Below, piece after piece: positions 6,258-60,143 of a stretch of 64,000 nucleotides of DNA. Location of the stretch: NCBI GenBank assembly GCA_002402995.1, contig DHGX01000001.1:85625-149624 (forward strand), read 5' to 3'. This DNA is from Patescibacteria group bacterium UBA4787 (GTDB lineage: Bacteria; Patescibacteriota; Patescibacteriia; UBA2591; UBA4787). The notes beneath the pieces were generated by a model that was not told the origin of the DNA, ran no database searches, and worked only from the letters and a program-made list of their open reading frames with translations. Position 1 is the stretch's first letter, and each line of letters starts with the position of its first letter. Position numbers and translations under genes: made by a program.

Positions 6258-6362
6258 TTGACAAAAAGCCTTAATTTTAAGTAAAATTAGATTGTCTTCT
6301 ATTTTAAGACAGAATAAAAATAAAATAGTTCTTTAAATAAAAAATCAAAATGGGAAAGGAGG
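6258..6362 (+). promoter_or_regulatory. Sigma70-type promoter, boxA-like motif and SD upstream of arc
   Basis: TTGACA 6258-6263, 18-bp spacer, TAAAAT 6282-6287; GTTCTTTAAA 6328-6337; AGGAGG 6357-6362. Confidence 0.65.
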
Positions 6363-6369
6363 GTGTAAA

Positions 6370-8094
6370 ATGCCCGAAACCTTGAAACAGCGTCTGCAGA
6401 AGTGGATTCGCGACGAGGGTAGTTCAATCGATAAACTGGTCGAGTTTATTCAGCAGGAAATCAACGCGGTTATCCAGGAAAAGATCAAGCAGGTCGGAGC
6501 TTTAGTCGAGAAACTAAAGAATAGCGAAAATGCGCGACTCGATTTATTTGAGAAGTTCCAGGAACTAGTGAAGCGCTACAAGAATCTGAAAGAGCCGCCT
6601 TCAAGCTATGGCCGTGTTTTAGACAAACAGAGCGAACACGATCGTCTATTAAATCAAGACACTAAAACCGTAACCATTATCACTGCCGAAGGACGGATTA
6701 TGAAGGTTTTAGCCGAATCCGATGAGCTGTATAACAGGTTAAAATTCGGCGACAGCGTAGTAATAAACGCTAACGGCAACATTACGGCCTGCGGCTCGTT
6801 CCTCGGTAATGGTAGAACTGCGACCATCGAAATTGTCCTTGATGCGCGCCGGGCCCTGATCAATACGGGTACGGATCACAAAGAGGAGGTTTATTTGGTC
6901 CCTGGTTTCGCCAGTTTGAAATCTGGTGACGTGGTGGTTTACGATCCGTATTCGCACTTCGTTCTGGAGAAGATTCCGAAGGACGCCAATTTGAGCGAAC
7001 TGGAGCTGGAAAAGGTTCCGAACATTTCTTTGGACGACATCGGCGGTTTGCCGGAACAGAAAAGCACTATTGCTTTTAATATCTTGTCGCCGTTGGTTTA
7101 TCCCGAGATTTTCCAGAAACAGAAGCTCGAAATGTCCAAGGGCGCGATTTTGATCGGCCCTCCGGGCTGCGGCAAGACCATGATGGCCAAAGCGATCGCT
7201 CACGAACTGACGATGCATATGCGGGAAAAGCTCAAGAACCCAACGGCTATGGGCTGCTTCCTTTATGTGCGCGGTCCGGAACTTTCCGCCTGGTTGGTCG
7301 GTATGACCGAGTACAAGCTGCGCGAATTGTTCAAGAAAGCGGTGGAGAAAGCCAAGGAAACTGGTATTCCAACCGTCATTTACATTGACGAGGTGGAATC
7401 TTTTTTGAGGACGCGTGGAACAGGGATCTCTTCTGATGTGAAGGACGATTACGTGACCCAATTTAACTCTTTGGTTGACGGCCTTGACGAGACCGGCGGT
7501 CTGGTGTTTGTGCTGGCAGCCTCTAATCGTCCGGACATGATCGACCCGGCTGTGATGCGCGAAGGCCGACTTGACCTGAAGGTGATGGTCAGCCGTCCGA
7601 CACGCACAGAGCATGCCGAGGACATCCTGCGCAAGTATTTGACTTCGGATCTTTATTTCGACAAGTGTCACGAGAATGACGATAAGACGGTCTTGGTCAA
7701 CGAGTGGATCAAGAAAATCGCCAACTTCATTTTCGCGGACACGGAAGAGACGGAGTTCATGCGAGTGGACTATGTTGACGGCACAAACGAGGTTCTGTAT
7801 TTCCGGCATTTCGTTTCCGGCGCATTACTGAAAGCAATCGTCGATGAGGCGAAGCGCAAAGCTATCCGGCGGGAAATGGAAAAGCGCGGTGACTGTGGCT
7901 TAACGATAGACGACTTCTTGTCGGCTACAACGGAAAAGTTCTGCCAGAATAAACATCTGATTGACAAAGATGCTCTGCGGCAGGAATTCATTCTGCGGCC
8001 GGGCAAGACCGTTGAGAAGGTCATCAGCCTCGTGGAAACCAAGGAGGTGGAGAAGGAGCGCGGTGGTCTGAATGTTGACAGTGATGCTGTGTAA
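6370..8094 (+). CDS. arc: Proteasome-associated AAA ATPase (ARC/Mpa)
   Basis: N-terminal coiled coil, EPPSSYG, OB region, LELEKVPNISLDDIGGL, Walker A GPPGCGKT, VRGPEL pore loop, Walker B IYIDEVE, SRH ASNRPDMIDPAVMREGRLD, EVLYFRHFVSGA. Confidence 0.92.
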   Translation: MPETLKQRLQKWIRDEGSSIDKLVEFIQQEINAVIQEKIKQVGALVEKLKNSENARLDLFEKFQELVKRYKNLKEPPSSYGRVLDKQSEHDRLLNQDTKTVTIITAEGRIMKVLAESDELYNRLKFGDSVVINANGNITACGSFLGNGRTATIEIVLDARRALINTGTDHKEEVYLVPGFASLKSGDVVVYDPYSHFVLEKIPKDANLSELELEKVPNISLDDIGGLPEQKSTIAFNILSPLVYPEIFQKQKLEMSKGAILIGPPGCGKTMMAKAIAHELTMHMREKLKNPTAMGCFLYVRGPELSAWLVGMTEYKLRELFKKAVEKAKETGIPTVIYIDEVESFLRTRGTGISSDVKDDYVTQFNSLVDGLDETGGLVFVLAASNRPDMIDPAVMREGRLDLKVMVSRPTRTEHAEDILRKYLTSDLYFDKCHENDDKTVLVNEWIKKIANFIFADTEETEFMRVDYVDGTNEVLYFRHFVSGALLKAIVDEAKRKAIRREMEKRGDCGLTIDDFLSATTEKFCQNKHLIDKDALRQEFILRPGKTVEKVISLVETKEVEKERGGLNVDSDAV

Positions 8095-8102
8095 ATCAAT
8101 CC

Positions 8103-8133
8103 AGAGGGGAGCTCAAGCTTCCCTCTTTTATTT
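8103..8133 (+). terminator. Intrinsic terminator after arc
   Basis: AGAGGG.GAGC-TCAA-GCTT.CCCTCT followed by a T-rich tail. Confidence 0.65.
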
Positions 8134-8216
8134 ATTTAATTAATTTTTTATTGACCAATGCACCTCGGCTTATTTTATCAAAAATAACGACTGTTGATAA
8201 AAACTTCTAAATGGGG

Positions 8217-8291
8217 TTGACAAATTGGGTTTTTTACAACTATAATTAAGTATTAAAAAATTAAATATCGTTCTTTAAAAAGAAAGGGGGT
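8217..8291 (+). promoter_or_regulatory. Consensus sigma70 promoter and boxA-like motif upstream of dop
   Basis: TTGACA 8217-8222, 18-bp spacer, TATAAT 8241-8246; GTTCTTTAAAA 8270-8280; G-rich SD. Confidence 0.75.
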
Positions 8292-8297
8292 AACTCA

Positions 8298-9869
8298 ATG
8301 AGAATCCCAAAAGTTTTTGGCATAGAAACCGAATGGTCTGTTCGTGTTCGAACGCGCAATAGCGTCAGGTTAGCTAACGCCAAAGAATTCGGCGTATTAA
8401 TAAAATTTATACGCGAATTTTTTACTTTGACCAACACCAGACAAGATTCCCAATGGGAGGCTTGTTCGGTTGATGCTGACCGCGAGTTAGAGCAAGAAAT
8501 AGATCTGCGGCATATCGAGAGTGTTGGTTATCTACCGAACGGCGCTCGTTTATATGTCGACTGGCCGCATTTGGAATATTCAACGCCCGAATGTCAGACG
8601 ATTCGTGATTTAATCGCCGCTGACCAAGCTGGCAATTGGCTGCTTAATATGGCCGCCAAAAAAGCCAGTCAACTCTTGAAAAGAGAGATTATAATTATCA
8701 AAGATAATTCCGATCGCAAAGGCGTTTCTTATGCCAGCCACGAGAATTATTCTTTGCAGCCCAGAACATTTAAGGCCATGATCGACCGACAGAACAGCGA
8801 AGCTCGCGATTTGATTTTGCCGTTTTTGGTAACGCGTCAAATTTTGGCCGGAGCCGGCAAAGTTGGTTCCGAAGCTAATAATTTGAGATCTGCAGATTAC
8901 GGCGAAACAAATTTTCAGATTTCGCAACGCGCAGATTTTATCAATGAAATTATCGGTATCGCCACTACGTCGCCGCGCAATCTGATCAACAGGCGCGATG
9001 AACCACATGCTGATTCTGATCTCTGCCGGCGATTGCATGTTATTATTGGTGATGCCAATTTCTGCGATTGGTCTTATTTTTTGCGCGTTGGAACCTACGC
9101 TCTGGTTTTGCGCATGCTGGAAGATTGCTTTATCGGCAATTCGCCAGTTTGTGTCGACAACCACTGGCTCGAAGCGCTTTATCAGACCTCGCGAGATTTG
9201 ACATGCAAGAAGAAGTTGCAGATTGGCACGGCTAGTCAATCACAGATGAATCCGATCGAGATTCAGCGTTGGTATCTTGGCTTAGTCAAGGAATATCTTG
9301 CCGAGTTTAAAGGCAGCGCCGAAGATCATGAGGTTTGTGAAAAATGGGAATATGTTTTAAACGCTCTGGACAACGACCCGAACCAATTGTTCGGCGTCTT
9401 GGACTGGGTAACAAAGAAATGTATTCTTGATCAATATCTTCAACACCAAGGCTTGCTTTGGCAGGATTCTCGGCTCCGTGTAATCGACATAGCTTACCAC
9501 AATATTAGCGATGAGGCTGGTCTTTATTATCAATTTTTAAAAAAAGGGAAAATCCAGAAATTGATTAATAACGAGTTGTTAATGGATAGGGTTCATAATC
9601 CTCCCGTTGACACACGCGCCTATTTGCGCGGAAAGATCGCTCGGCTTTATCCTGAGTTTGTGGAAGATTGGGAGATAATTTCCAATCGCATGCCAAGTAG
9701 ATTTCGTAAGGAACAGTTGGATTCGTTAAGGGTTATCCTAGAAGAAAAACACATTATTACTTTGGGTAACCCGGTTTTAACGCGAGAAGAGAGCGAAGAA
9801 ATTTTCAAACAAATTATTAATCTTTTGAAATCATGGAAAGGAGGAAGCGAAGATGTTAACACGACTTGA
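8298..9869 (+). CDS. dop: Pup deamidase/depupylase Dop-like (PafA/Dop family)
   Basis: FGIETEW, Trp-containing Dop-loop-like insert, NGARLYVDWPHLEYSTPEC, KDNSDRKGVSYASHENY (Dop type), ISQRADF, RDEPHAD, RRLHVIIGDAN, PPVDTRAYLRG. Confidence 0.85.
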   Translation: MRIPKVFGIETEWSVRVRTRNSVRLANAKEFGVLIKFIREFFTLTNTRQDSQWEACSVDADRELEQEIDLRHIESVGYLPNGARLYVDWPHLEYSTPECQTIRDLIAADQAGNWLLNMAAKKASQLLKREIIIIKDNSDRKGVSYASHENYSLQPRTFKAMIDRQNSEARDLILPFLVTRQILAGAGKVGSEANNLRSADYGETNFQISQRADFINEIIGIATTSPRNLINRRDEPHADSDLCRRLHVIIGDANFCDWSYFLRVGTYALVLRMLEDCFIGNSPVCVDNHWLEALYQTSRDLTCKKKLQIGTASQSQMNPIEIQRWYLGLVKEYLAEFKGSAEDHEVCEKWEYVLNALDNDPNQLFGVLDWVTKKCILDQYLQHQGLLWQDSRLRVIDIAYHNISDEAGLYYQFLKKGKIQKLINNELLMDRVHNPPVDTRAYLRGKIARLYPEFVEDWEIISNRMPSRFRKEQLDSLRVILEEKHIITLGNPVLTREESEEIFKQIINLLKSWKGGSEDVNTT

Positions 9870-10602
9870 GTTGACTTGGCGATTAATGGATGAGCTAATC
9901 GCTCAATTCCTGAAATTGCCGAGCGCGATAGGACAGAGCGACTTTAAACTGGAAGAGTATTTACAGCAATCCCATCTTCACGGTACCACCGTCCTCGCTC
10001 TGAAATATCAGGGTGGAGTGCTGTTAGGTGGAGACGGTCGGGCTTCCGGCATGGATTTCCGTATTTTTACGGACAAAACTCCGAAGGTTTATCCGGTTTC
10101 CGAGTCGACTGCTTACGGTCTTTCTGGGGACGCTCATCTGGGTATTGAGGTGGGAAAGATCTTGGCTTTGACGCTTAAGAATTACGAGAAGAAAGAGTTT
10201 CGAGCCATGAGTTTTGTCGCTCAAACCAAGATGTTGGCTAAAATGATCGAGCGTTTACTGCCAATGGCTATGCAGGGCCGTATCGTGATGCCGATTTTCG
10301 TGTCATGTCAGGAAATCTGCACGATTTATCCGAATGGCATGGTGGTAAGGGGAGATGAAGGTTATGGTGGAATTGGTTCGGGTAGTCCTCACGCCATTCA
10401 TCGCATCAAGGCTCGTTTGGCTGATAACCCCAATCCAGATAAAACCAGGGCGATAGAAATTATACTCGAAGCTTTTGCGGAAGCTCATAAGAGTGATGCC
10501 GCAACCGGCTCTAATTTGCTGATTTATAGTCTGGAAGAGTCGGGAATCGCTATCGTTCGCAACGATGTCGGAAACGGACCGTTTTCGATGAACCTGTTGT
10601 AA
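9853..10602 (+). CDS. prcB: 20S proteasome beta subunit with propeptide
   Basis: Autocleavage site HG|TTVLAL, GDGRAS (Asp17), Lys33 in TPKVY, GIGSGS, SDAATG. Confidence 0.9.
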   Translation: MLTRLELTWRLMDELIAQFLKLPSAIGQSDFKLEEYLQQSHLHGTTVLALKYQGGVLLGGDGRASGMDFRIFTDKTPKVYPVSESTAYGLSGDAHLGIEVGKILALTLKNYEKKEFRAMSFVAQTKMLAKMIERLLPMAMQGRIVMPIFVSCQEICTIYPNGMVVRGDEGYGGIGSGSPHAIHRIKARLADNPNPDKTRAIEIILEAFAEAHKSDAATGSNLLIYSLEESGIAIVRNDVGNGPFSMNLL

Positions 10603-10617
10603 TCGTGAGGTGAAATA

Positions 10618-11322
10618 ATGGCTGATAAATTGGATCTCATTGCCAACGACAAAGATAATGCCTTGCCGGTTATCGCAGTCAGCACCAAAGACGGCATACT
10701 TCTTGTCGCAATTAATTTTTCCATTAGTCCGGAGGATTCCGATACCTACATCCACAAACTTTCAGAGATCCATGACAATATCGGCATGGGCGCTTGTGGC
10801 AATAGCAGCGAGTATGATCCGCTGCGCAGGCAGTTTATCGACGTCGTTGATAGGCTTGCCTACGAGTTGTCCAAGGACGATATTGTCTTGAAGAGTCTGG
10901 CCAATAGTTTGGCCGGAGAGTTGCGCGATGTATATCGCAATCCCCGTCTGGTTCCTCGTGTGGTCTTCTTCGTCTTGGTGGAATGTCAGGAAGATTCGAA
11001 GCGGGATCGTTTCGTCCGGATCGGTCTCGACGGCAAGTTCAAGATCTTTAATAATTTCACGGTGATCGGCGGCAACGACAAAGAGGTTGGCGCTCTAATG
11101 GATAACCTCAGGTCCGTCGAATTTTTGGAGATGGACTGGCCGACCGCTTTAACCGCGATCAAGGAAGCGATAAAGAAAACCAACATCGCCCGGATCGCTG
11201 GCGCAAAGAAATCGGACAAGACCGTCGAACCGTTCCCATCCCTGGAGCTGGCAATTCTCTGGCGTGGAAGAACTGGCAGAAAATGGCAGCTTTTGCCGCA
11301 TCAAATTAAGGAGGTGAAATAA
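10618..11322 (+). CDS. prcA: 20S proteasome alpha subunit, divergent with short N-terminus
   Basis: VIAVSTKDGILLVA, HKLSEIHDNIGMGACG..SEYDPLR, LELAILWR; directly after prcB. Confidence 0.82.
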   Translation: MADKLDLIANDKDNALPVIAVSTKDGILLVAINFSISPEDSDTYIHKLSEIHDNIGMGACGNSSEYDPLRRQFIDVVDRLAYELSKDDIVLKSLANSLAGELRDVYRNPRLVPRVVFFVLVECQEDSKRDRFVRIGLDGKFKIFNNFTVIGGNDKEVGALMDNLRSVEFLEMDWPTALTAIKEAIKKTNIARIAGAKKSDKTVEPFPSLELAILWRGRTGRKWQLLPHQIKEVK

Positions 11323-11323
11323 A

Positions 11324-11527
11324 ATGCTTAAAAAGCAGTTTCTATTCTTAACCCCAGACGAGCAAGAAAAAAAGGAGACTGAAAAACATCCTCTGGGGCC
11401 CAAGCCCGGCGGACCTGGCTCCGGTAAGAAGGCAGACAAAAATGATGATAACATCGATGACATCCTTGATGACATCATCGAACGGAATAAGCGGGTTAAT
11501 GAAACTGACGAGCGAGAGGGTCAGTAA
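11324..11527 (+). CDS. Prokaryotic ubiquitin-like modifier (Pup/UBact-like), 67 aa, C-terminus REGQ
   Basis: Strong SD AAGGAGGTG; small, acidic, disorder-prone; IDDILDDI helix; terminal G-Q; lies between prcA and pafA. Confidence 0.85.
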   Translation: MLKKQFLFLTPDEQEKKETEKHPLGPKPGGPGSGKKADKNDDNIDDILDDIIERNKRVNETDEREGQ

Positions 11528-11532
11528 TATTT

Positions 11533-11568
11533 AATCCCCGCACTTTAAAATAGTGCGGGGATTTTTTT
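11533..11568 (+). terminator. Intrinsic terminator after dop-prcB-prcA-modifier
   Basis: AATCCCCGCACT-loop-AGTGCGGGGATT followed by a T run. Confidence 0.85.
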
Positions 11569-11672
11569 ATAATCGCAATGAGCGAGGCAGCAGAAATTTT
11601 ATTTTTAGATTGCCGGACAGGTCAGATTATATATTGAAGAGAGGCATAGTTCTCCTCTTCTTCTATTTTAAT

Positions 11673-11747
11673 TTGACAAATCATCAAAAAAAGATAAGAT
11701 TTATATAAGAAAAATAATAATGTTGTTCCTTAAAATTATTCAAGGAG
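11673..11747 (+). promoter_or_regulatory. Promoter, boxA-like motif and SD upstream of pafA copy 1
   Basis: TTGACA 11673-11678, TAAGAT 11695-11700 (16-bp spacer), GTTCCTTAAAA 11725-11735, AAGGAG 11742-11747. Confidence 0.6.
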
Positions 11748-11755
11748 AGAATAAA

Positions 11756-13285
11756 ATGAAGAAGAGAATTATTGGGATAGAGAATGAATATCGGATTCAG
11801 GCTCTGCCCGGATTCGATAAAAGCAGATACAAGGTTTATTTTCGGGGATTGAAAATAAGCTTGAATCAGTTTCTATCCAACGGAGCGAGGTTTTATTTGG
11901 ATTTTCCGAGCGAACTGCCGGAGTATTGCACGCCGGAAGTTACGACCATCCGTGAAGTTCTGGCGCATGAACGCGCCGGAGATTATATTGTCTGGGAGAG
12001 CCTGAAAGACATGATGGAAATTTTTAGGCGGAATACCAGTCAGCCAGGTCTCTTTTACAAATATCTGGCAAGTGGTTGTCATGAGAACTATCTTTTTTAT
12101 CTTGATGAAGCTATCAAGTCAACTGCGAATATCTACCCGCAGATGAGCGGCCACATCTTGGCAAGATTGGTGGCTTTTTTGGGGCCCTTCTTGGTCTCTC
12201 GACAGATTTTTTGCGGCGCTGGTTGGTGGTTAACAAATGAAGATGGGCGAAGTTATTTTAATATTTCGCAGCGCGCCCATTTTATGAAGCGTGATTACGG
12301 CGGAGACACGATGCAGAATAGGGCGATTATCAATTCTCGGAATGAATCATTGTGTTCGTCGAGCAATTATTCTCGTCTTCATCTCATTGTTGGCGACTCC
12401 AATATGAGCGATCTCTCTGGTTTTCTCAAGCTCGGCACCACGTCTATCGTTTTAAGGATGATCGAAGCAGGCTTCTTTGATCCACAAGACATTGTTCTAG
12501 TTGATCCGGTTGCGGCTATCGCTGTCATTTCCGATGATTTGAGCTGTAAGGCGACTGTCCAGGCCGGCGGTTTGCATCGTTCGCTTTCAGCCATTGACAT
12601 CCAAGAGTGGTATCTTAATAAAGCTCGTGAATTTTTTGAATGTCGAGAAGTATCCGAAGAGGAGAAGGAGGTTATAAAATATTGGCAGGAAGTTTTGGAC
12701 AAACTGCGCCGAGACCCCATGCTTCTCAAAGAGGAGATCGACTGGGTGATCAAATATAATTTGATTTGCCGTTATGCTGAAAAACACGGTGTTGATCTCG
12801 ATCATTGTTCGGACGAGGAGAGTGAAGCGCTGAGAGTCATTGACACTCATTATCATTCTCTAAATCCGGAGAGAGGTTTGTACCACAAGCTTCTCGGCGC
12901 TGGGAAGATCGCCAAGCTTATTAGTGATAAAGAGGTGGCTTTGGCAATAAAATCTCCACCGACTGATACGCGAGCCAAAGTCCGTGGTGACTTCATTTCT
13001 TTCATCCTGAAAAATCATGCGGATTTGGTTAGGTATTTCATCGTCAATTGGGACGCTATTCGTTATAATTATCGTGCTAATGGATTTTCTAGGCTGATCC
13101 ACGAATTTCAACCTAATCAAGACGATGAATCGGTGAAAGCCTGTGTTTTCAATCTCGGCGATCCGTTTCTTTCAACAGAAACTTGCAACAACTTCCAAGT
13201 ATTGGTTGAAGAGATTGAGTCTCACCAAGAATTTTTCAAATCTATGATACCAACTCCGTCTCCTGACCATCGCGATTATGAATAG
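11756..13285 (+). CDS. pafA: Pup--protein ligase PafA-like, copy 1 (start moved to the SD-preceded ATG at 11756)
   Basis: KRIIGIENEY, FLSNGARFYLD, GCHENY, FLVSRQIFCGAG, ISQRA, RLHLIVGDSNMS, LKLGTT, EIDWVIK, PPTDTRAKVRG; no Dop loop. Confidence 0.85.
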   Translation: MKKRIIGIENEYRIQALPGFDKSRYKVYFRGLKISLNQFLSNGARFYLDFPSELPEYCTPEVTTIREVLAHERAGDYIVWESLKDMMEIFRRNTSQPGLFYKYLASGCHENYLFYLDEAIKSTANIYPQMSGHILARLVAFLGPFLVSRQIFCGAGWWLTNEDGRSYFNISQRAHFMKRDYGGDTMQNRAIINSRNESLCSSSNYSRLHLIVGDSNMSDLSGFLKLGTTSIVLRMIEAGFFDPQDIVLVDPVAAIAVISDDLSCKATVQAGGLHRSLSAIDIQEWYLNKAREFFECREVSEEEKEVIKYWQEVLDKLRRDPMLLKEEIDWVIKYNLICRYAEKHGVDLDHCSDEESEALRVIDTHYHSLNPERGLYHKLLGAGKIAKLISDKEVALAIKSPPTDTRAKVRGDFISFILKNHADLVRYFIVNWDAIRYNYRANGFSRLIHEFQPNQDDESVKACVFNLGDPFLSTETCNNFQVLVEEIESHQEFFKSMIPTPSPDHRDYE

Positions 13286-13325
13286 TCCCGTTCTGGCTGA
13301 TTGAAATCCCCATTTTATTTTTATT

Positions 13326-13353
13326 AACGCTCCTAAATAATTAGGAGCGTTTT
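13326..13353 (+). terminator. Intrinsic terminator after pafA copy 1
   Basis: AACGCTCCTA-AATAAT-TAGGAGCGTT followed by T. Confidence 0.8.
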
Positions 13354-13357
13354 AAAT

Positions 13358-13416
13358 TTGACAAATTATCAAAAAACGCTAAGCTTTAAATAATAAAATT
13401 AAAATCGTTCTTTACA
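13358..13416 (+). promoter_or_regulatory. Promoter and boxA-like motif upstream of pafA copy 2, near-duplicate of the copy 1 promoter
   Basis: TTGACAAATTATCAAAAAACGCTAAGCT versus TTGACAAATCATCAAAAAAAGATAAGAT; GTTCTTTACA 13407-13416. Confidence 0.6.
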
Positions 13417-13430
13417 AAGAAGGGAATAAA

Positions 13431-14900
13431 ATGCAAAAACGCATTTATGGTTTGGAGACTGAGTATAGGTGGTGGAGTTCCTTGCCGGAGAAAAACCCCG
13501 ATAATCCGAGTCAGGTTTTTTCCGGATATCATTTGAATACTATAGTCAATTACTATCCGGGTAATTATTCTGGCTTTTTGCCAAACGGCGCTAGGTTTTA
13601 TGTGGACATGGTTCGGTTTCCAGAGTTCTCAACTCCGGAATGTGCGAGTGTTAGAGATGCCGTGATTTGGGATAAGGCAGGGGAAAAAATAGTTTTCGAT
13701 TGTTTGGGCGGCGCTGTTGTCATCCGAAAAAGAAATTTAGGCAGCAACGGAAAAGTACAGGGTTGCCACGAGAATTATTTGATCGATCGCCAGGTCTTAT
13801 TGAAAGATCGCGACATCTCTCTCGGTCATGTCCATTTGGTCGAACGAGACTTTAATTATTTGGCCGATCGTCTAATTCCTTTTTTGGTGACGCGCCAGGT
13901 TTTCTGCGGCACCGGCGCCATTATGGAGTTCCCACAAATTCAGATAGGGGAAAATCCTTCAACTCAGTGTTTATATCGCTATGTCATTTCACAGCGAGCT
14001 TTCAGAATCGAGCATTTAATCCACGCCGAGACTACTAATAATCGGCCGATCATTAACATGCGCAATGAGCCTCTGTGCGGTGGCGACGAGAGATATTTCC
14101 GCCTGCATCTGATTCTGGGTGATTCTAATCTTTCAGAGTTTTCGACTTTCTTGAAATTGGGTACTACTGGCATAATCTTGCGGATGATTGAGGCTGATTT
14201 TTTAGACACAACCAGTATTGCTCTGCTTGATCCATTAGCAGCTCTTCGGCAAGTCGCGATAGATCCGACTTGCAAAAAAAGGCTAGACTTGGTTGATCAA
14301 CGTCAGTTTTCAGCTATCGACATTCAACAGTGGTATCTCGACAAAGCCAATAAGTTCTTCCAGCGCAACGAAGCTTCAGAAGAGGAAAAAGAAGTGATTG
14401 AGCGTTGGCAAGAAACGTTGGACAAACTGCGCCGAGACCCCATGCTTCTCAAAGAGGAGATCGACTGGGTGATCAAGCTCAACGCTTTGATAAGATATTG
14501 CGAATCTCGCAATTTATCTTTTGACAGCGAAGAAGCAAGGCGTCTTGACGTGGCTTATCATGATCTTGATCCGGATAATTCTCTCTACTTAAAACTTCTT
14601 AAACGTGGTCGCGTCAAGAGGTTAGTTGCCGAGGAAGAGATCGAGAACGCCATTGTTAATCCGCCCGATACGCGCGCCAAAATTAGAGGTTCTGTTATAC
14701 TGGCAATCAACGATTATATTAATCGTTCGTCTATTGGCCGTGATCGCGGCATCTTAATAAACTGGGATTTGGTTTCTGTGTATGCTTCTACGATTCCTCC
14801 TACCACTACTTCTGATAAGATAATAACACTAAGCGATCCTTTCGCGGTGGAAAATTCGGAAATCCAGGCTCTAGTCAACCAATTAAATGCTACACTTTAA
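13431..14900 (+). CDS. pafA: Pup--protein ligase PafA-like, copy 2
   Basis: MQKRIYGLETEY, FLPNGARFYVD, PEFSTPEC, QGCHENY, FLVTRQVFCGTG, TTNNRPIIN, RLHLILGDSN, PPDTRAKIRG. Confidence 0.85.
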   Translation: MQKRIYGLETEYRWWSSLPEKNPDNPSQVFSGYHLNTIVNYYPGNYSGFLPNGARFYVDMVRFPEFSTPECASVRDAVIWDKAGEKIVFDCLGGAVVIRKRNLGSNGKVQGCHENYLIDRQVLLKDRDISLGHVHLVERDFNYLADRLIPFLVTRQVFCGTGAIMEFPQIQIGENPSTQCLYRYVISQRAFRIEHLIHAETTNNRPIINMRNEPLCGGDERYFRLHLILGDSNLSEFSTFLKLGTTGIILRMIEADFLDTTSIALLDPLAALRQVAIDPTCKKRLDLVDQRQFSAIDIQQWYLDKANKFFQRNEASEEEKEVIERWQETLDKLRRDPMLLKEEIDWVIKLNALIRYCESRNLSFDSEEARRLDVAYHDLDPDNSLYLKLLKRGRVKRLVAEEEIENAIVNPPDTRAKIRGSVILAINDYINRSSIGRDRGILINWDLVSVYASTIPPTTTSDKIITLSDPFAVENSEIQALVNQLNATL

Positions 14901-14929
14901 CCCCTACTATAAAACAGTAGGGGTTTTTA
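14899..14929 (+). terminator. Intrinsic terminator ending the proteasome locus
   Basis: AACCCCTACT-loop-AGTAGGGGTT followed by a T run. Confidence 0.8.
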
Positions 14930-15041
14930 TTTTAATTATCCCCACTTACAACTTGATTTTTTCGCCATTTTATATTATAATGTATTTAACGTGACTAATT
15001 AGTGATGATTAGTCATTTTTAATTTTCTAAATTTTTGAGAT

Positions 15042-16415
15042 ATGGAAATGTCAATTATTGAGGCGATTGAGCAAATTTGCTTAGAGAAAAGTCTTTCCAA
15101 AGAAAAAGTTTTAGAAGCAATTGAACAGGCTTTAGCTGCTGCTTATCGCAAAGACTTTGGAGAAAAAAACCAAAATATAAAAGTTGAGTTCAATCCGGTG
15201 AACGGAGCGATGAAAATCTTCGACATAAAAACGGTTGTCGAAGATTCTTTATTGGAAGAATTTCAGAAAGAGATGGAAGAAGGCGAATCTGAAGAAGCGC
15301 CCAGTTCGGAAATTGCATCTGAAGGAGAAAAAGAGAAGAAGCGTTTTAATCCTAGAACAGACATCGCCTTAACTGAAGCGCGCAGAATTAAAAAAAGCAT
15401 GAAACAGGGAGATGAAATAAAAATAGAGCTGTCTTTACCTGAGGATTTCGGACGCGTGGCTGCGCAAACCGCCAAGCAAGTTATTATTCAGAGATTGCGA
15501 GAAGCCGAGCGGCAGAATATTTTTGACACATTTAAAGATCAGGAAGGTAAGGTTCTTAACGGGGTTATCCAGCGTCGAGAAAACAATAATTTATTTGTCG
15601 TTGACTTGAACGGTACGGCAGCGGTTTTGCCTCCGTCTGAACAGGTGCGCGAAGAGAAATATTATCCTGGGCAGAAATTAAGATTTTATATCGCAACGGT
15701 AAATATGACGCCACGCGGTCCGGAGATTATAACATCTCGTCGACACAGCGAAATCGTGAAAGAACTTTTCCGTTTGGAAATACCGGAAATTAACAGTGGC
15801 GTCGTAGAGATAAAAGGCATCGCCCGCGAGGCTGGTTTACGTAGTAAGGTGGCAGTTATTAGCAATGACGAAAATATTGACCCGATTGGTTCTTGTATTG
15901 GGCAAAAAGGCGTTCGCATTCAAACAATTATTAACGAATTAAACGGCGAAAAAATAGATATTATCGAATACTCGGAAGACGCAGCTAAATTTATCGGCAA
16001 TGCTCTATCTCCGGCCAAGGTTACCTCGGTTGTTTTAAATGAACAAGAAAAAAAGACTATTGTTTCTGTTAAAGAAAATCAATTTTCTTTAGCTATCGGT
16101 CGTGATGGCCAGAATGTCCGCTTGGCAGCCCGTTTAACTGGTTGGGCTATTGAAGTTGTTAAAGATGGCGAAACGTTTGGCGAAGGCGTAAGCGCCAATC
16201 AAGAAGGAGAATTACAGGGTGGAGAAACCGGCGAACCGATAACAGAAATTGAAGCTGAACAACTCGGTGAAGAGGAAAAAACCAAAGAAGAATCTGTTCC
16301 GGAATTAGTCGAAGAATTAAAAGAAGAAATGTCTTCAGAAACGATAGGCGGAGAAATAGTGGCCGGCGCTGGCGAAGAGGTTGTTGAAGAAACCCCCGGA
16401 AAATTAGAAGAATAA
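15042..16415 (+). CDS. nusA: Transcription termination/antitermination factor NusA with acidic C-terminal tail
   Basis: FGRVAAQTAKQVIIQRLREAER, IAREAGLRSKVAV, DPIGSCIGQKG, LAIGRDGQNVRLAARLTGW. Confidence 0.97.
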   Translation: MEMSIIEAIEQICLEKSLSKEKVLEAIEQALAAAYRKDFGEKNQNIKVEFNPVNGAMKIFDIKTVVEDSLLEEFQKEMEEGESEEAPSSEIASEGEKEKKRFNPRTDIALTEARRIKKSMKQGDEIKIELSLPEDFGRVAAQTAKQVIIQRLREAERQNIFDTFKDQEGKVLNGVIQRRENNNLFVVDLNGTAAVLPPSEQVREEKYYPGQKLRFYIATVNMTPRGPEIITSRRHSEIVKELFRLEIPEINSGVVEIKGIAREAGLRSKVAVISNDENIDPIGSCIGQKGVRIQTIINELNGEKIDIIEYSEDAAKFIGNALSPAKVTSVVLNEQEKKTIVSVKENQFSLAIGRDGQNVRLAARLTGWAIEVVKDGETFGEGVSANQEGELQGGETGEPITEIEAEQLGEEEKTKEESVPELVEELKEEMSSETIGGEIVAGAGEEVVEETPGKLEE

Positions 16416-20979: not shown

Positions 20980-21264
20980 ATGGCAAAGAATTTATTCGTA
21001 GGGAATCTTCCTTACAAAACCACCGGCGACGATTTAAAAAATATGTTCGCCCAAGCTGGAGAAGTCGAATCAGCTAGCGTTATCTCCGACAAATTTTCCG
21101 GTCGTTCACGAGGTTTCGGCTTCGTAGAAATGGCCGACGAAGATGCGGCCCAAGCAGCCATTAAGATGTTTAATGACTATGATATCGAAGGTCGTAAGTT
21201 GTTAGTTAACGAAGCTCGACCCAGGCAAGAAGGTGGTCGACGCAGCAATTTTGACAGAAATTAA
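20980..21264 (+). CDS. RRM (RNP-1) RNA-binding protein
   Basis: LFVGNL (RNP2) and RGFGFVEM (RNP1). Confidence 0.95.
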   Translation: MAKNLFVGNLPYKTTGDDLKNMFAQAGEVESASVISDKFSGRSRGFGFVEMADEDAAQAAIKMFNDYDIEGRKLLVNEARPRQEGGRRSNFDRN

Positions 21265-38695: not shown

Positions 38696-38850
38696 GCATA
38701 TATAATATCAAATAAATTTTAGAACTTAGGCTTGACAAAAGTCAAAAAATCCGCTACAATCCAATTTAGATCATTAACATTCCTGTTGAATCTGTCGCAA
38801 AAAGCGACGGATTTTTAACAGGGTAAATAAAAACCAAAAGGAGAAAAACG

Positions 38851-41034: not shown

Positions 41035-41043
41035 AGCGACGAG

Positions 41044-44298: not shown

Positions 44299-44392
44299 AG
44301 ATGATTAAAAGATATCAAATCCCGGGCACTAAAAATGTCCGGGATTTGTTTTTTGTTGACCTTTTCTCCTTATTTTGTAGAATAAAACAATT

Positions 44393-45778: not shown

Positions 45779-45802
45779 ATTTTGTGTTAATATGTTGATA
45801 TT

Positions 45803-46114
45803 ATGTTAGCTATTAGATTTTCAAGACACGGGAAAAAAAATCAACCATTTTTTAGGATCGTTGTATCCGAAAAAGCCAAAGATCCAGTGGGAGATTTTTT
45901 AGAAGACTTAGGTTTTTATAACCCTCGTTCCAAAGAAGTTTCTTTTAAAAAAGAAAGAATTTTGCATTGGATCGGTTGTGGCGCTAAACCGAGCGCGACG
46001 GTTCACAATCTTCTGCTTAAACACGGCGTCACTACAGGTGAAAGAATTAAAGTAATGCGTCGTCACAAAAAAGACCAAGAGGAAAAAGAAGCCGCGCCGG
46101 CGCCAGCTGCTTAA
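45803..46114 (+). CDS. rpsP: 30S ribosomal protein S16
   Basis: MLAIRFSRHGKKNQPFFRIVV, LGFYNP, GAKPSATV. Confidence 0.96.
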   Translation: MLAIRFSRHGKKNQPFFRIVVSEKAKDPVGDFLEDLGFYNPRSKEVSFKKERILHWIGCGAKPSATVHNLLLKHGVTTGERIKVMRRHKKDQEEKEAAPAPAA

Positions 46115-46206
46115 TATGCTTTATCTTTAAAATAAAGAAAGGTCGGATGAATTAAAAAATTATACTGGCATACTTTTGCGTGTCAGATAATAAACACAAA
46201 AAGAAT

Positions 46207-46512
46207 ATGGCTGCTAAGAATTCAGATCAAGAGTTTCTTGAGAATCTCGTTACTGCGCTTGTTAACAATCCTAAGGATGTTAAAATTGAGCGCCATGTTG
46301 ACGAGATGGGTGTTTTACTCACCATGAAAGTTAATCCCGCGGATATGGGCCAAATTATTGGCCGCGAGGGACAAACTGCTCGTGCCATTCGTACCCTTTT
46401 AAGATTAGTGGGCATGAAGAATAAAGCTCGCGTTAATCTTAAAATTGAGGAGCCGGAAGGCGGGAGAATGATGAAACCATCTACTTCAATTGACGAAGAT
46501 TTAAAAATTTAA
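46207..46512 (+). CDS. khpA: KH-domain RNA-binding protein KhpA (UPF0109)
   Basis: LVNNPKDV, DMGQIIGREGQTARAIRTLL; rpsP-khpA-trmD synteny. Confidence 0.92.
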   Translation: MAAKNSDQEFLENLVTALVNNPKDVKIERHVDEMGVLLTMKVNPADMGQIIGREGQTARAIRTLLRLVGMKNKARVNLKIEEPEGGRMMKPSTSIDEDLKI

Positions 46513-46582: not shown

Positions 46583-46729
46583 TATGCCAGGTAGTGAAAA
46601 TTCGATAGTGCTTTTTGCTTCGGCTCATTACTTGGTTTCGTTGTTAACAAAATAACTAATCTTTGCTTCCAGCGCACTCCTTAATATAATCGCACTTCAA
46701 GAAGCATCGAATTTCTACTACCTGGTATG
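46583..46729. mobile_element. Miniature inverted-repeat element family B, copy 2, at the trmD start codon
   Basis: Same termini as 41044-41190, interior diverged. Confidence 0.8.
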
Positions 46730-47455
46730 ATTAAGTTCGATATTTTGACCATATTCCCCAAAGTTTTCGAAGGATATTTTTCTACTTCTATCATAAATCG
46801 GGCGAAGACAAAGAGACTCGTTAAAATTAGTATTCATAATCTGCGCGATTATACTTTTGATCGGCGCAAGACCATCGATGACCGGCCTTACGGCGGCGGC
46901 GCGGGTATGATTATGAAAGTCGAGCCGATTTATTTGGTTCTTAAAAAATTAACGCACAATTTTAGGAAAGACTCTAAACGAAAAATTATTCTGTTGCGGC
47001 CGTCTAAAAAGATTTTTAATCAAAATATAGCTCGCTCTTATAAAAACTTGAAACATATTATTTTGATTTGCGGTCACTATGAAGGCGTTGATGAACGGGT
47101 TGAACATTTTATTGACGAGTCTTTATCAGTCGGGAATTTCGTATTAACCGGCGGAGAATTGGCAGCGATGATTGTAGTCGATGCGATTACGAGGTTAGTC
47201 GACGGTTCAATTAAAAAAGAATCGCTGGGTGAAGAGTCATTCGATGATGAGGGTTGTCTCAAAATAGAATATCCTCAGTATACTCGTCCGGGAATTTTGA
47301 CAATTAAAGATAAATTCGGTAAAATAAAAGTATTGAAAGCGCCAAGAGTGTTGCTTTCAGGAAGTCATCAAAAGATCAGAGAATGGCGCCATGGCCAAGT
47401 AGCAGAAAAAGTGGCCAGAGCACTCCAAAAAAACAATAGGGGCAAAGATATTTAA
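46727..47455 (+). CDS. trmD: tRNA (guanine-N1)-methyltransferase
   Basis: DDRPYGGGAGM, ICGHYEGVDER, FVLTGGE, EYPQYTRP, LLSGSH. Confidence 0.97.
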   Translation: MIKFDILTIFPKVFEGYFSTSIINRAKTKRLVKISIHNLRDYTFDRRKTIDDRPYGGGAGMIMKVEPIYLVLKKLTHNFRKDSKRKIILLRPSKKIFNQNIARSYKNLKHIILICGHYEGVDERVEHFIDESLSVGNFVLTGGELAAMIVVDAITRLVDGSIKKESLGEESFDDEGCLKIEYPQYTRPGILTIKDKFGKIKVLKAPRVLLSGSHQKIREWRHGQVAEKVARALQKNNRGKDI

Positions 47456-47511: not shown

Positions 47512-47576
47512 TTGACAAATCTCAAAAAAATATTTATATTGAGTATTGTTAATTTATATAGCCAAGTTCTTTAAAA
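47512..47576 (+). promoter_or_regulatory. rRNA promoter and boxA antiterminator
   Basis: TTGACA 47512-47517, 17-bp spacer, TATATT 47535-47540; GTTCTTTAAAA 47566-47576. Confidence 0.75.
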
Positions 47577-47665
47577 ATTTATTTTTTAGTTCAAACCACT
47601 ACAAAAATTCTTAAATTTTTTGTAGTTGCAAATTTTGAGTTTTGTAAATTTTTAGTATCAAATTT

Positions 47666-49192
<1,527 letters not shown>

Positions 49193-49338
49193 TAGAGGAT
49201 ATATCCCGACTATATGTCGGGATGGTCGATACTTTTCTTTTCCCTTGGGAATTAAGAGTATTTTCTCAAATATTTGCAACTACAAAAAGCTTAGGAATTT
49301 TTTTATTTAAATTAAAAATTTTAATAATTTTTAACAAA

Positions 49339-49365: not shown

Positions 49366-49577
49366 GTATTATTTGACTTTGATTGACCGTGTTTTAGCTA
49401 CAATCAAAACATAACTATTTATATAAATCACGTTGCGATCATAATAATTTTAAAAAGAATCAGAGAAAATTCAGTATCTTTTAATATAATTACATATTGA
49501 CAAAAGACGGGTTTCTGCTATGTTTATATGAACATAATTTGTTCATTAAATAAAAATTAAAAAGGAGGTATCAGGTC

Positions 49578-54052: not shown

Positions 54053-54100
54053 CTTATGACACCCCCTTTCTTTCTATTTTTATTTTAAAAGTGCGATTAA

Positions 54101-54826
54101 TTACTTTTTATTGAGATCTTTTTGAAATTTCACAAGAGCTTTCTTGGCTGCTTCGGTTTCGGCTTCTTGTTTATTGGTGCCTCTTCCCCGGGCGATAGGT
54201 TTGCCATCAACGACAGATATGGCTACAAATAATCTTTCGTGGGCTGGTCCGGTCTCGGAAACGATTTCATATCGGGGAGTCTTTTTTAGTTGAGCTTGTA
54301 CAATTTCTTGTAAAAGTGTTTTGGGGTCTTTGTCTTGGATAATTTTTACCGCCGATTTGGGAATACCAGTAATAATAAATTTGTTAACAAATTCTTTAGT
54401 CTTGATAAAACCTTGATCTAAGTAAATAGCGCCGATAAGAGCTTCTGTGGCATCGGCTAAAATTACTTTTTTAGCCTTGGGTTCTCCGATTAATTCGCCG
54501 CGGCCAAGGAATAGAAATTTTTCTAAATTTATTTTTTCAGCCGTATCTGATAGATTATTGGTATTAACAATAGCAGACCTTAAAAGTGTTAATTCGCCCT
54601 CCGGTTTGCGGAACATTTTAAATAGATATTCCGTAACAATCAATTCGAGGACTGCGTCGCCTAGAAATTCTAGTCTTTCGTTATGGTCCCACCTAACGAG
54701 TCGATTCTCATTTTTGAAAGATCGATGAGTAAGCGCTTCTCTGAGCAAATTGAAATGTCTGAATTTAATATTAATAAACTTTTCTAGTTTCTCAAGATTT
54801 TGATTGTTCGTTTTTATTTTCTGCAT
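54101..54826 (-). CDS. rnc: Ribonuclease III
   Basis: [32 protein letters not shown], ds[15 protein letters not shown]. Confidence 0.97.
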
Positions 54827-55259
54827 CTTCTTTGCCTTTTATTTTTTCATAAATAGCTCCTAGCACGCCATTAACGAATTTACCGGAACTAATGCCACTG
54901 AACGCTTTGGCCACTTCAATAGCTTCATTTATGGCTACTTTAGGCGGCGTATTTTTAGACACGGCCAATTCATAAACGCCAATACGTAAAATATTGCGAT
55001 CAATCGAGGTGATTTGTTCAAGCGGCCATTGGGGCGCATATTCTTTAATATAGTTATCTATTTTGTCTAGATTGTCGATTATGCCAAAGACTAATTCTTC
55101 ACTGAATTTATTATCTCCATCCAGCATGCCGAATTCTTCAGAGTTTCTTTTAACAATTTCTATTAGTTCATTTTTGTCTAATTCTTTTTCCGCGCGCGAA
55201 AAATCCCATTCATAAAGGGTTTGCAGGGCGATAGTTCTACTCAAATGACGCGAGGCCAT
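54792..55259 (-). CDS. nusB: Transcription antitermination factor NusB
   Basis: [47 protein letters not shown]. Confidence 0.97.
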
Positions 55260-55281
55260 ATGATTTTTATTAAAAATCTAA

Positions 55282-55629: not shown

Positions 55630-55890
55630 TTTTATCCTCGAAACTCCAAAAAATTTCGTTTCAATTATAAACGATCGATGTTATAATTGGCGAACGGAGG
55701 AACAGACAATTTTTTGTCTAATTCTGTAGCGAGCCAATTTCACAGAGCGAAGCAAGTATAATTGGCAGCAGGGATAAAACAAAAATTTTCCGCCAGCTGG
55801 CGGATTGATTTTATCCGAAGCGCTCAAATTTCAGAAGCGAGGCGACTATATTTTTTTTGTTGATCAAGCTAATAAAAATAAAATAAATTT

Positions 55891-58130: not shown

Positions 58131-58298
58131 AAATTTGAATAAATTTATTTGTGAGCAAGCGAGGGAAAAGCAAATGAATTTGCTTTTCCGAGCGAGCGAA
58201 ACAAACACAGGGTTAATAGTTTGACGTTTGCATAAGTTGACGCATAGAGCACGCTCTGTGCGGGCATCAAGCTTGCCCCGTGGTAAACACCTTTATAT

Positions 58299-59981
58299 AT
58301 GGATAATTCAACAAGCAAAATTAAATTAACCGAGGAAGAGGGAGCGGCAAAATTACAGGAAAAATTAAAAACAATTAGTAGTAAGGGCGAAGAAGAGGAA
58401 GTAGAAGAAAAAGCCCGTTTTGCCGGTTTAAGTTATGTCAACTTGGTTCGTTTTCCGATTGCGCCGGAAGCCCTATCTCTATTGACCCCAGAAGACGCTT
58501 TAAAATATCACGCCATTTGTTTTTATGCCGGCGAGCGAGACGCCAAGATTGGTTTTGTAAAAGCCGAAGACCAGACTGTCAAAGAAGTTAAAGAAATGAT
58601 TGAATCCATTTACCGCCTTAAATTAGAAGTTTTTTTAATTTCTCAGACAAGTTTCGATTACGGATATAAATTATACGCTTCTTTGCCCAAGGTTAGTAAA
58701 TTTGCTACAGGCGTGGAAATCACCGAAGAGAATTTGAAAAAATACCAAGTTGCCATCAAAACTTTCCGCGACTTGGACCAAAAAATTAAAGAAGTTTCTA
58801 TTTCCGACATTATTATTTTAATAATGGCTGCTTCTTTGCAATCTAGAAGCTCGGATATCCATATTGAGGCTGAAGAAGCAGACATTAAAATTAGATTTCG
58901 CGTAGACGGTGTTTTAATTGACGTAGCTTCTTTGCCGAAATCTTTTTGGAAACAAGTAGTCACTAGAATCAAATTGCTTTCCGGATTGAAAATCAATATT
59001 ATTGATAAACCGCAAGATGGCCGTTTTACGATTCATTTGTCTAACGAGAGTATTGATGTTCGTGTTTCTTGTTTGCCGACTGCTTTCGGGGAAAGCGTGG
59101 TGATGAGAATCTTGCGTTCGTCTTCAACCGGGCTTTCTTTTGACAATTTAGGTCTTCGCGGTACGGTTTACGAAAAATTGAAACAAGAAGTAGAGCGACC
59201 AAACGGCATGGTTATTACTACTGGCCCCACAGGTTCAGGTAAAACTACAACGCTATACGCGATTTTGAATAAAATTAATGATCCGGAGACAAAAATTATC
59301 ACACTAGAAGATCCCGTGGAATATCAACTGAAGGGTATTAATCAAAGTCAGGTTGATCCCAGTCGCAATTATACTTTCGCCGCGGGCTTAAGATCTATTT
59401 TGCGCCAAGATCCGGACGTAGTAATGGTTGGAGAAATTCGCGACCTAGAAACAGCAGAGATTGCTATCCAGGCGGCTCTAACTGGCCACTTAGTAATTTC
59501 GACTTTACATACTAATGATGCGGCTGGCGCTCTTCCGCGTTTTTTGTCTATGGGGGTCAAGCCATATCTATTAGCGCCGGCGATTAACGCGATTATTGGT
59601 CAGCGTTTGGTGCGGCGTATTTGCGAACACTGCAAAGAAGAAATGATTTTGTCGCCAGAAGTTTTAGAAAAAGCTAAAAAAACACTTTCAGACATTCCTT
59701 TTGTGTCCGGCGTGAAAGTTGATTTAAACACTCTTAAATTTTATCATGGTTTGGGTTGCGACGAATGCCAGGGTTTGGGTTATAAAGGACGTATAGGCAT
59801 TTATGAAGTTTTTAATATGAACGCGGAAATCGAAAAAGTGATTGTTGGCGGAGAAGTAAGCGAGTATTTAATACGCGATTTAGCTAAAAAACAGGGTATG
59901 TTGACTATGGCGCAAGACGGTATTCTAAAAGCCATAGAAGGTATCACCACCGTAGAAGAAGTTTTCCGTGTTACCGAGTAA
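58299..59981 (+). CDS. GspE/PilB family type IV pilus assembly ATPase
   Basis: SDIHIE, PQDGRF, GPTGSGKTTTLY, LEDPVEY, LRQDPD, TGHLVISTLHTN, CxxC..CxxC. Confidence 0.93.
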   Translation: MDNSTSKIKLTEEEGAAKLQEKLKTISSKGEEEEVEEKARFAGLSYVNLVRFPIAPEALSLLTPEDALKYHAICFYAGERDAKIGFVKAEDQTVKEVKEMIESIYRLKLEVFLISQTSFDYGYKLYASLPKVSKFATGVEITEENLKKYQVAIKTFRDLDQKIKEVSISDIIILIMAASLQSRSSDIHIEAEEADIKIRFRVDGVLIDVASLPKSFWKQVVTRIKLLSGLKINIIDKPQDGRFTIHLSNESIDVRVSCLPTAFGESVVMRILRSSSTGLSFDNLGLRGTVYEKLKQEVERPNGMVITTGPTGSGKTTTLYAILNKINDPETKIITLEDPVEYQLKGINQSQVDPSRNYTFAAGLRSILRQDPDVVMVGEIRDLETAEIAIQAALTGHLVISTLHTNDAAGALPRFLSMGVKPYLLAPAINAIIGQRLVRRICEHCKEEMILSPEVLEKAKKTLSDIPFVSGVKVDLNTLKFYHGLGCDECQGLGYKGRIGIYEVFNMNAEIEKVIVGGEVSEYLIRDLAKKQGMLTMAQDGILKAIEGITTVEEVFRVTE

Positions 59982-60143
59982 CGCACTTGACTCTTCAATA
60001 AGAAATAGGATAGAATTATCTTATTGATAAATAGCACTTTTAAAAATTCACCCCGTTAAATCCTATAGAGTAGGAATTCCGACTAAAGTCGCAATTATTT
60101 AACAAGGGTAAATAAAAATTCTCAAAAAAAGGAGGATTCTAAA

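Follow-up and report, generated by a model that had tools for sequence, protein, structure and literature searches.

A boxA-like motif between promoter and Shine-Dalgarno sequence in mRNA leaders of a patescibacterial genome, a candidate site for NusB-S10

Here we consider a boxA-like motif found in gene leaders on a 64,000-nucleotide stretch of DNA (the window; contig DHGX01000001.1, positions 85,625 to 149,624, or G000:C3:85625-149624 in our numbering) from Patescibacteria group bacterium UBA4787, whose genome (765,527 bp in four contigs) is 99% complete by marker genes and has about 38% G+C. An earlier note on this DNA had proposed that an rRNA-type boxA followed by a strong Shine-Dalgarno (SD) sequence marks the accessory rather than the core genes, and that it serves Nus-dependent antitermination. 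The genome-wide layout of promoter, boxA and SD does exist: about forty predicted mRNA leaders carry the motif (30-42 leaders in a 0.77-Mb genome). Judging from sequence comparison, the motif appears to be boxA itself, the same element as in the organism's own 16S and 23S rRNA leaders, reused in sense-strand mRNA leaders. The reading that we prefer, with a probability of roughly 0.5, is that NusB-S10 recognizes the motif in mRNA leaders and thereby gates elongation or the loading of the 30S subunit, the output being something other than antitermination.

The gene set comprised our own crude calls (713 longest non-overlapping open reading frames, ORFs), the starts of which were refined by an SD-favouring rule applied to every gene alike, motif-bearing or not; promoters and transcription starts are predictions throughout, and several counts were summed by hand from large tables. 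The sequencing runs listed for window 6000-15000 comprised four DNA runs from the probable source sample and one run with a small share, and none of RNA. The pattern GTTC[ACT]TT[AG][AC]A has 40 matches genome-wide, and in the 71,182 nt of upstream intergenic DNA it occurs 19 times in the sense and twice in the antisense orientation, compared to 1.56 on average and at most 5 in 300 dinucleotide shuffles. When 8-mers were counted between positions -70 and -12 with no prior for boxA, AGTTCTTT ranked second, and TTCATTAA, TCATTAAA and TCTTTAAA were enriched too. A consensus sigma-70 promoter (TTGACN-16..18-TANNNT within 160 nt upstream) was present at 71 genes, and in 30 of these the 7-mer core G[ACT]TC[AT]TT was observed between the -10 box and the ATG, the respective mean and maximum in 1000 shuffles being 1.09 and 7, with a single antisense occurrence. 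Scores of a scan with a position weight matrix were excluded as evidence of enrichment, since the matrix had been made from the sites it scored.

Hence the motif is seen 19-30 times where dinucleotide and mononucleotide shuffles give 1-2, and the expected enrichment over a shuffled background is borne out. These shuffles largely refute the explanation that the motif has no function of its own, being either a compositional artefact of AT-rich leaders or a passenger in copied promoter cassettes or mobile elements, and we consider it very improbable. Such hitchhiking might have been suspected from the promoter spacers, which are unusually alike (TTGACAAAAGnCGATTTTTnTGCTATATT at several loci), and from four leaders of DUF5701 genes, which are paralogous copies. 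However, the stretches from the -10 box to the motif and from the motif to the SD are not conserved among loci, so that, the DUF5701 leaders aside, there is no single copied cassette, and the layout is kept before unrelated genes in 33 of the 55 genomes of the order. A miniature inverted-repeat transposable element or a copied cassette was rejected as a candidate because of these unconserved flanks.

The motif starts at a median of 17.5 nt past the -10 box (interquartile range 10-22; full range 6-40 nt, with one outlier at 71) and at a median of 38 nt before the ATG (interquartile range 33-45), the spacing to the start codon being no tighter than that to the promoter. Thus it probably lies near the 5' end of the predicted transcript, in about its first 35 nt. 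The consensus over 42 SD-led genes is (T)AG[T/A/C]TC[T/A]TTAAA(A/T), with about 4 of the 42 estimated by eye to be chance hits; the GATC and GCTC variants fill the same slot, and the motif is broader than first described. An A-rich spacer separates it from the SD. As the distance to the -10 box varies between 6 and 40 nt, a promoter element is ruled out, and the variable promoter spacing together with the fixed strand points to an element of the RNA rather than a part of the promoter.

The same observations bear on a signal acting at the DNA level, that is, an operator bound by a global repressor, or a signal in the non-template strand for NusG pausing (TTNTTT type) or for an ops-like system. 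The sequence GTTCTTT does contain TTNTTT, the pause motif of NusG, and several motif genes encode proteases or proteasome parts, which at first hinted at a stress regulon. NusG-dependent pauses are described as frequent in B. subtilis leaders (PMC11602163). On the other hand, the sense to antisense ratio of 30:1, the variable promoter distance and the lack of dyad symmetry argue against an ordinary operator, while the common variants GTTCATT, GATCATT and GCTCATT break TTNTTT and yet leave the G and C invariant. The genome encodes only one NusG (a single NusG_N match), with no RfaH- or LoaP-like paralogue. The downstream genes are functionally mixed both here and in the relatives, where 15 of 27 downstream proteins match no Pfam family and the rest are unrelated to one another, and hence form no coherent regulon. 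We therefore regard a DNA-level signal as quite unlikely.

The motif is closely linked to SD-led initiation. Of the 499 genes whose upstream intergenic DNA spans 50 nt or more, a strong SD was observed in 34 of 38 motif genes and in 88 of 461 others (Fisher p 1e-18), in a genome that is SD-poor overall, even a 4-mer SD being present in only 217 of 598 genes. In the 71 genes with a consensus promoter, the distance between the -10 box and the start codon is bimodal, with seven genes at 6-9 nt and a broad peak at 40-65 nt. Based on this distance, the seven genes, which include rpsP, are predicted to be leaderless. The 7-mer core was found in 27 of 38 long leaders with an SD and in 3 of 12 long leaders without one, and in none of the short leaders (n = 14) or leaderless genes (n = 7). 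The motif mostly takes the place after predicted promoters and before SD-led genes that the earlier note had assigned to it. The core genes listed in that note, ftsW, nusA, tig, tyrS, rpsP and dnaA, are correctly identified and, as described, have AT-rich leaders with neither motif nor SD. Leaderless-type promoters are seen in the window at rpsP (45760-45805) and tyrS (44350-44395), and short AT-rich leaders without an SD also precede many other core genes. The 3' end of the 16S gene (window 49170-49193) reads GGATCACCTCTTTT, giving the anti-SD CCUCU where CCUCC is the usual form; the common AAGGAGG still pairs with it via one G-U.

The association with SD-led starts raises the alternative that the motif only resembles boxA and serves another factor at the RNA level, for example as a 30S/S1 enhancer or standby site, or as a target of an RNA-recognition-motif (RRM) or KhpA protein. 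Besides the tightness of that association, the rather narrow spread of distances to the start codon (interquartile range 33-45 nt), the A-rich spacer between motif and SD, and the preference for an AAAA tail over the rRNA-type ACAA are all in line with such a factor, and the window itself encodes candidate binders of leader RNA, namely a 94-aa RRM_1 protein (20980-21264) and a KhpA-type KH protein (46180-46512). The distance to the start codon is, though, no tighter than that to the promoter, and the best duplexes with 16S rRNA, at -7.9 to -8.7 kcal/mol, are within about 1.5 standard deviations of shuffled motifs and fall in differing places for each variant. Furthermore, in its invariant G and C and in the positions that tolerate change the motif follows the variation of the rRNA boxA in the order, which would otherwise have to be a coincidence. 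All in all, another RNA-binding factor seems rather unlikely, if still to be reckoned with. An epsilon-like enhancer acting by base pairing was rejected, there being no 16S complementarity beyond chance and no complement with two or fewer mismatches.

The comparison with the rRNA leaders favours boxA. The 16S gene (window 47666-49193) is unlinked to the 23S gene (C3:20-2730, minus strand). Its leader comprises a predicted promoter, TTGACA-17-TATATT (47512-47540, plus strand), followed by GTTCTTTAAAAATT and then by the arm of a processing stem that pairs with the sequence past 16S; the boxA proper, GTTCTTTAAAAA, is at 47566-47577 on the plus strand, 25 nt past the -10 box and 100 nt before 16S. 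The 23S leader contains GATCTTTAACAATT / AAGATCTTTAACAATTT near C3:2830 (minus strand), about 86 nt before 23S and after a hairpin. For the relatives, 30 16S loci were taken from the 36 genomes with a 16S match among the 55 of the order, and G[TC]TC[TAG]TT[AG]A[CA]A was found 36-230 nt before 16S in 28 of these loci, genome G012 being doubtful and G034 having none. In this respect the motif is identical in kind to an rRNA-leader boxA, as the earlier note had claimed from the 16S leader of the window: it matches the genome's own 16S and 23S leaders and the 16S leaders at 28-29 of the 30 loci of relatives. The trmD gene directly precedes the 16S gene both here (trmD at 46727-47455, with the 16S promoter and leader at 47512-47666) and in many relatives (loci L040-L069), and in several relatives boxA starts no more than a few bases from where the trmD coding sequence ends, which leaves no space for a separate promoter.

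The search rule itself fixes G, T3, C4, T6 and T7 in all 42 mRNA sites; at positions 8-11, which it leaves free, A is present in 27-36 of them. Variants with T at the fifth position fit the E. coli-derived boxA consensus GYTCTTTAANA (as given in PMC5725501), while those with A at this position are outside it. Nevertheless, the rRNA boxAs of relatives include GTTCATTAACAA and GCTCATTAAAAT, with the same A at position five as is often seen in this genome's mRNA leaders, and both GTTCATT and GCTCATT occur here in mRNA leaders as well as in rRNA leaders of relatives. According to PMC3177189, the base-specific contacts in the crystal structure of Aquifex NusB-NusE-BoxA coincide with the invariant positions of the motif, and lambda boxA mutations at G, C and the following U are reported not to be tolerated; the U following C is the position at which A occurs in the mRNA sites considered here.

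Proteins that could read such a site are all encoded: NusB, S10 (downstream of tuf), NusA and a single NusG. The nusB gene, coding for the predicted reader of the motif, is at 54792-55259 on the minus strand and adjoins rnc (54101-54826); its product aligns with NusBs of solved structure at E-values of 3e-20 to 1e-12 and retains the conserved C-terminal KFVNGVL stretch. The nusA gene is at 15042-16415 on the plus strand. Among the 55 genomes of the order NusB was found in 49, including 40 of the 42 high-quality ones. By contrast, no Rho was found with PF07497 and TIGR00767 in this 99%-complete genome, and none in the 55 genomes of the order.

The absence of a Rho match weighs against the classical explanation, by which the motif loads Nus factors and makes RNA polymerase resistant to termination, allowing full transcription of the accessory genes (processive antitermination). 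Antitermination at boxA is also known from clustered regularly interspaced short palindromic repeat (CRISPR) arrays, and this explanation shares all the sequence evidence for the identity of the motif with boxA. The role of boxA in rrn operons and in lambda nut is its classical basis (PMC5725501, PMC3177189). Still, without Rho there would be no Rho-dependent termination to suppress, and the motif genes are short, encoding 80-710 aa. Terminators were scanned for in the Pup-proteasome cluster only, and there each of the four short units closes at a strong intrinsic terminator of its own (8103-8126, plus strand, closing the arc unit; 11533-11563, 13326-13351 and 14899-14925), after which a fresh promoter and boxA follow, which would be needless for a read-through polymerase. 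In the leaders inspected, no terminator-like hairpin with a U-run is present between the motif and the start codon. Since no Rho was found in the lineage and the scanned units close at their own terminators, antitermination is an unlikely output. The protection from termination proposed in the earlier note is thus not upheld, and the check for rho that it called for turned out negative.

That the motif keeps to one strand, varies in its distance to the promoter and is identical with the rRNA element argues for an RNA site of NusB-S10. In the mechanism that we propose, NusB-S10 would bind boxA while the leader emerges, and the bound complex would stay tethered to RNA polymerase via S10-NusG and NusA, as it does on rRNA. 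The output might then be gated elongation, or gated 30S loading on the SD-bearing leader, similarly to E. coli suhB, and the expression of accessory SD-dependent genes would be tied to the pool of free NusB-S10.

Several observations weigh against this mechanism. SuhB, which repression of the E. coli suhB type needs, was not found in the genome by PF00459. Two genomes of one genus in the order have no NusB match, and one of them still has a 16S boxA. The tenth position is A in about 78 of 87 mRNA sites of the order (hand count) and C in 14 of 21 rRNA sites, which implies that the mRNA and rRNA sites are under non-identical constraint. The predicted unpaired probability is 0.50 for the motif and 0.55 for the rest of the leader, a comparison that is uninformative in AT-rich leaders. 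Finally, E. coli data cited in PMC3177189 indicate that transversions at the fifth (T/A) position are not tolerated. A further caveat is related to genomes without NusB and is given with them below.

The layout extends to relatives. The pattern GTTCWTTRAM-N8-35-GGAG-N4-12-ATG has 87 matches in 33 of the 55 genomes of the order, this genome having the most (n = 11), compared to 12 matches for the backward pattern and 16, in 13 genomes, for a permuted one (CTTG...). In the 30 loci of relatives that were read by eye, a TTGAC-type promoter was observed within 60 nt upstream at 23 of 28 sites. When 301 genomes were sampled evenly across the phylum, matches were found in 110 of them, their total being 191 against about 72 for the backward control (hand count), and no genome surpassed the count of the one considered here.

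If NusB reads the motif, its distribution and that of NusB should be related. NusB is present in 275 of the 301 genomes (a tally that takes in G208, flagged unpublished, which enters no other claim). In the 24 identified NusB-negative genomes we observed 6 matches of the motif-SD pattern against 10 for the control, compared to about 185 against 62 in the rest (hand-summed; Fisher p 0.003). Family f34 (e.g. G221, G061, G255, G270, G114) has NusB in none of its 15 genomes; of five 16S leaders from this family, three lack boxA and two have a degenerate one, and the SD before ATG shows no excess (641 vs. 602 in the control, compared to 98 vs. 37 in this genome). Thus, NusB, the rRNA boxA and SD-led initiation were apparently lost jointly in this family. 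The contrast between genomes with and without NusB has the expected direction but is tempered, since it comes mostly from one lineage (15 of the 24 genomes are f34) and is confounded by the missing SD excess there.

As for the genes that carry the motif, 23 of the 45 match no Pfam family, compared to 11 of 44 other genes in the window (Fisher p 0.016), the thresholds differing between the two sets with the looser one used for the motif genes; the 45 genes cover the strict and the weaker variants of the motif. The rest are arc, dop, two pafA-like genes, genes for ClpP-like and AAA_2 proteins, for S41 and M16 peptidases and for an aminopeptidase-like protein, as well as those for GH57 and GH2 glycosyl hydrolases, four DUF5701 paralogues, DUF218, ASCH, DUF2284 and DUF5658 proteins, a DEAH helicase and a thymidylate-kinase-like protein. 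On account of the arc, dop, pafA, ClpP-like, AAA_2, S41 and M16 genes, a regulon for stress or proteostasis was considered, but it was rejected because most other motif genes, including those of relatives, are unrelated or have no family. Dop is present in only 4 of the 55 genomes of the order, and a Dop-based search for related loci yielded only two near-identical contigs of metagenome-assembled genomes. Given the genes with no family and the rarity of Dop, accessory, mostly lineage-specific, is a fair description of the motif genes.

The division into accessory and core genes proposed in the earlier note is thus a strong tendency; it is not a rule, as the tuf-rpsJ operon and the thymidylate-kinase-like gene carry variants. 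The tuf-rpsJ leader (C2:329235-329390, minus strand) contains GATCTTTTTAAAAA in a perfect 22-nt palindrome, 27 nt past TTGACA-17-TATAAT. This could be an autoregulatory boxA, or else an unrelated hairpin or operator; it recalls the autoregulation of rpsJ predicted by Baniulyte et al. (PMC5725501).

Turning to individual sites, the gene labels used for the window (arc, dop, two further Pup-ligase-family, or pafA-like, genes, prcB and prcA) were verified, and all eleven sites on which the initial proposal was based are present where they had been located. A promoter of the TTGACN-16..18-TANNNT type is found 8-93 nt upstream of nine of the ten plus-strand sites. In the Pup-proteasome cluster, the motif is at 6328-6339 before arc (promoter 6258-6287, ATG 6370), at 8270-8281 before dop-prcB-prcA (promoter 8217-8246, ATG 8298), at 11725-11736, as the variant GTTCCTTAAAAT, before the first pafA-like gene (promoter 11673-11700, ATG 11756), and at 13407-13418 before the second one (promoter 13358-13385, ATG 13431), all on the plus strand. 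Further plus-strand sites precede a gene for a 239-aa protein with a hydrophobic N-terminus and no Pfam family (28892-28903, ATG 28935), a gene for a 140-aa protein with no Pfam family (variant GTTCTTTGCAAA, 39954-39965, ATG 40000) and a gene for a 177-aa membrane-like protein (GTTCATTAAATA, 49541-49552; promoter 49497-49524, ATG 49578).

The GATC variant GATCATTAACAT occupies 38769-38780 (plus strand) in the leader of a DUF5701 gene, 8 nt past the -10 box, and is followed by a conserved 18-bp hairpin and the ATG at 38851. The four DUF5701 paralogues share this leader of about 85 nt (window 38755-38853, C1:79159-79255, C1:142631-142735 and C1:180854-180958), in which the boxA variant 8 nt past the -10 box, the 18-bp hairpin, with a few compensatory changes, and CAAATAACAAACCAAAAGGAGG follow in this order. 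The ClpP-like leader (60034-60143) has the tail TTAACA.GGGTAAATAAAAA in common with them.

Two sites had been singled out as weaker, namely GCACTTTTAAAA in the ClpP-like leader (60034-60045, plus strand), in the same slot 17 nt past the -10 box, and its second copy before an HNH-like gene (54084-54095, minus strand). Both are present, but their membership in the motif is doubtful, as this sequence has just these two copies genome-wide and is unsupported on its own.

A few other elements were observed. The element CCAGGTAGT.GAAA(A)TTCGAT occurs twice, in the leader of a DUF4015 gene (window ~41040-41070) and at C1:138190-138215 (minus strand), where a promoter and boxA precede it and no ORF is close by; it might represent a small RNA or a riboswitch-like element. 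At E<=1 Rfam gave no match to the DUF5701 leaders, to C1:138100-138320 or to the tuf leader. Hairpins of the CCGCCAnCTGGCGG type are situated upstream of unrelated genes (window ~700-730, ftsW; 5180-5200, a methyltransferase; 55790-55810, dnaA), and the repeat GAGCGAGC...ACACAGGGTTAATA is present near comM (~36430-36470, minus sense), the 40000 gene (39895-39925) and a T2SSE gene (58190-58225).

In a broader and more tentative form, which we consider possible while leaning against it, Rho-less Patescibacteria would have turned the rRNA antitermination module into a genome-wide mRNA tag. There would then be two expression classes, the core genes being leaderless or lacking an SD, and the lineage-specific genes having a strong promoter, boxA, a long leader and an SD, with the output of the second class set by free S10/NusB and hence by the state of ribosome assembly. 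The prevailing view is that Nus factors are dedicated to rRNA and have at most a few mRNA targets per species. If NusB-S10 does read these leaders, they would constitute a Nus regulon of unusual size, covering about 5% of the genes in the minimal genome of a Rho-less lineage that keeps NusB, and would reveal a role of the Nus complex where antitermination is unneeded. It would also explain how core and accessory genes are expressed separately in uncultured ultra-small bacteria. The signature of promoter, boxA and SD can be used to find gene starts, transcription units and expressed orphan genes in Patescibacteria, where SD-based gene callers fare poorly. A full-text literature search on boxA or NusB in Patescibacteria or the Candidate Phyla Radiation and on boxA-like mRNA leaders genome-wide, with subscription journals outside its coverage, yielded no paper on this layout.

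Among the closest known systems is the complex formed at boxA in rrn leaders (NusB-NusE(S10)-NusA-NusG(-SuhB)): the core sequence is the same, NusB, S10, NusA and NusG are encoded here, and the element is on the sense strand of a predicted leader. Unlike in the rrn case, the motif here precedes about forty short mRNA units, no Rho or SuhB was detected in the genome, an A can stand at the fifth position, and the tail reads AAAA rather than the ACAA of rRNA. Gamma-proteobacterial genomes are about six times larger than this one. For them, Baniulyte et al. 2017 (PMC5725501) report 0-7 perfect matches to boxA per genome, counted within 50 bp of starts, and expect 'only a few regulatory targets' in any one species, most of them Nus or translation genes.

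The suhB gene of E. coli is a precedent for an mRNA site: according to the same source (PMC5725501), the Nus complex bound to boxA in the 5' untranslated region of suhB represses translation, independently of the boxA-SD spacing up to 100 nt and with host polymerase only. As in suhB, boxA here is within about 50 nt upstream of an SD-led start, which offers a ready mechanism for a Nus-dependent effect on translation; in contrast to suhB, Rho, a part of that mechanism, is missing here, and the sites are mostly on orphan genes.

In lambda nut, boxA is followed by the boxB hairpin, and the four DUF5701 leaders similarly place a conserved hairpin about 7 nt after the motif. The hairpin is, however, 18 bp long compared to 5 bp in boxB, most sites have none, and we know of no N-like protein here. 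Finally, RfaH-ops and LoaP likewise mark accessory over core genes by a strand-specific signal in the leader. These systems need a NusG paralogue and serve long operons, whereas here a single NusG is encoded and the motif is found in front of short, SD-led units.

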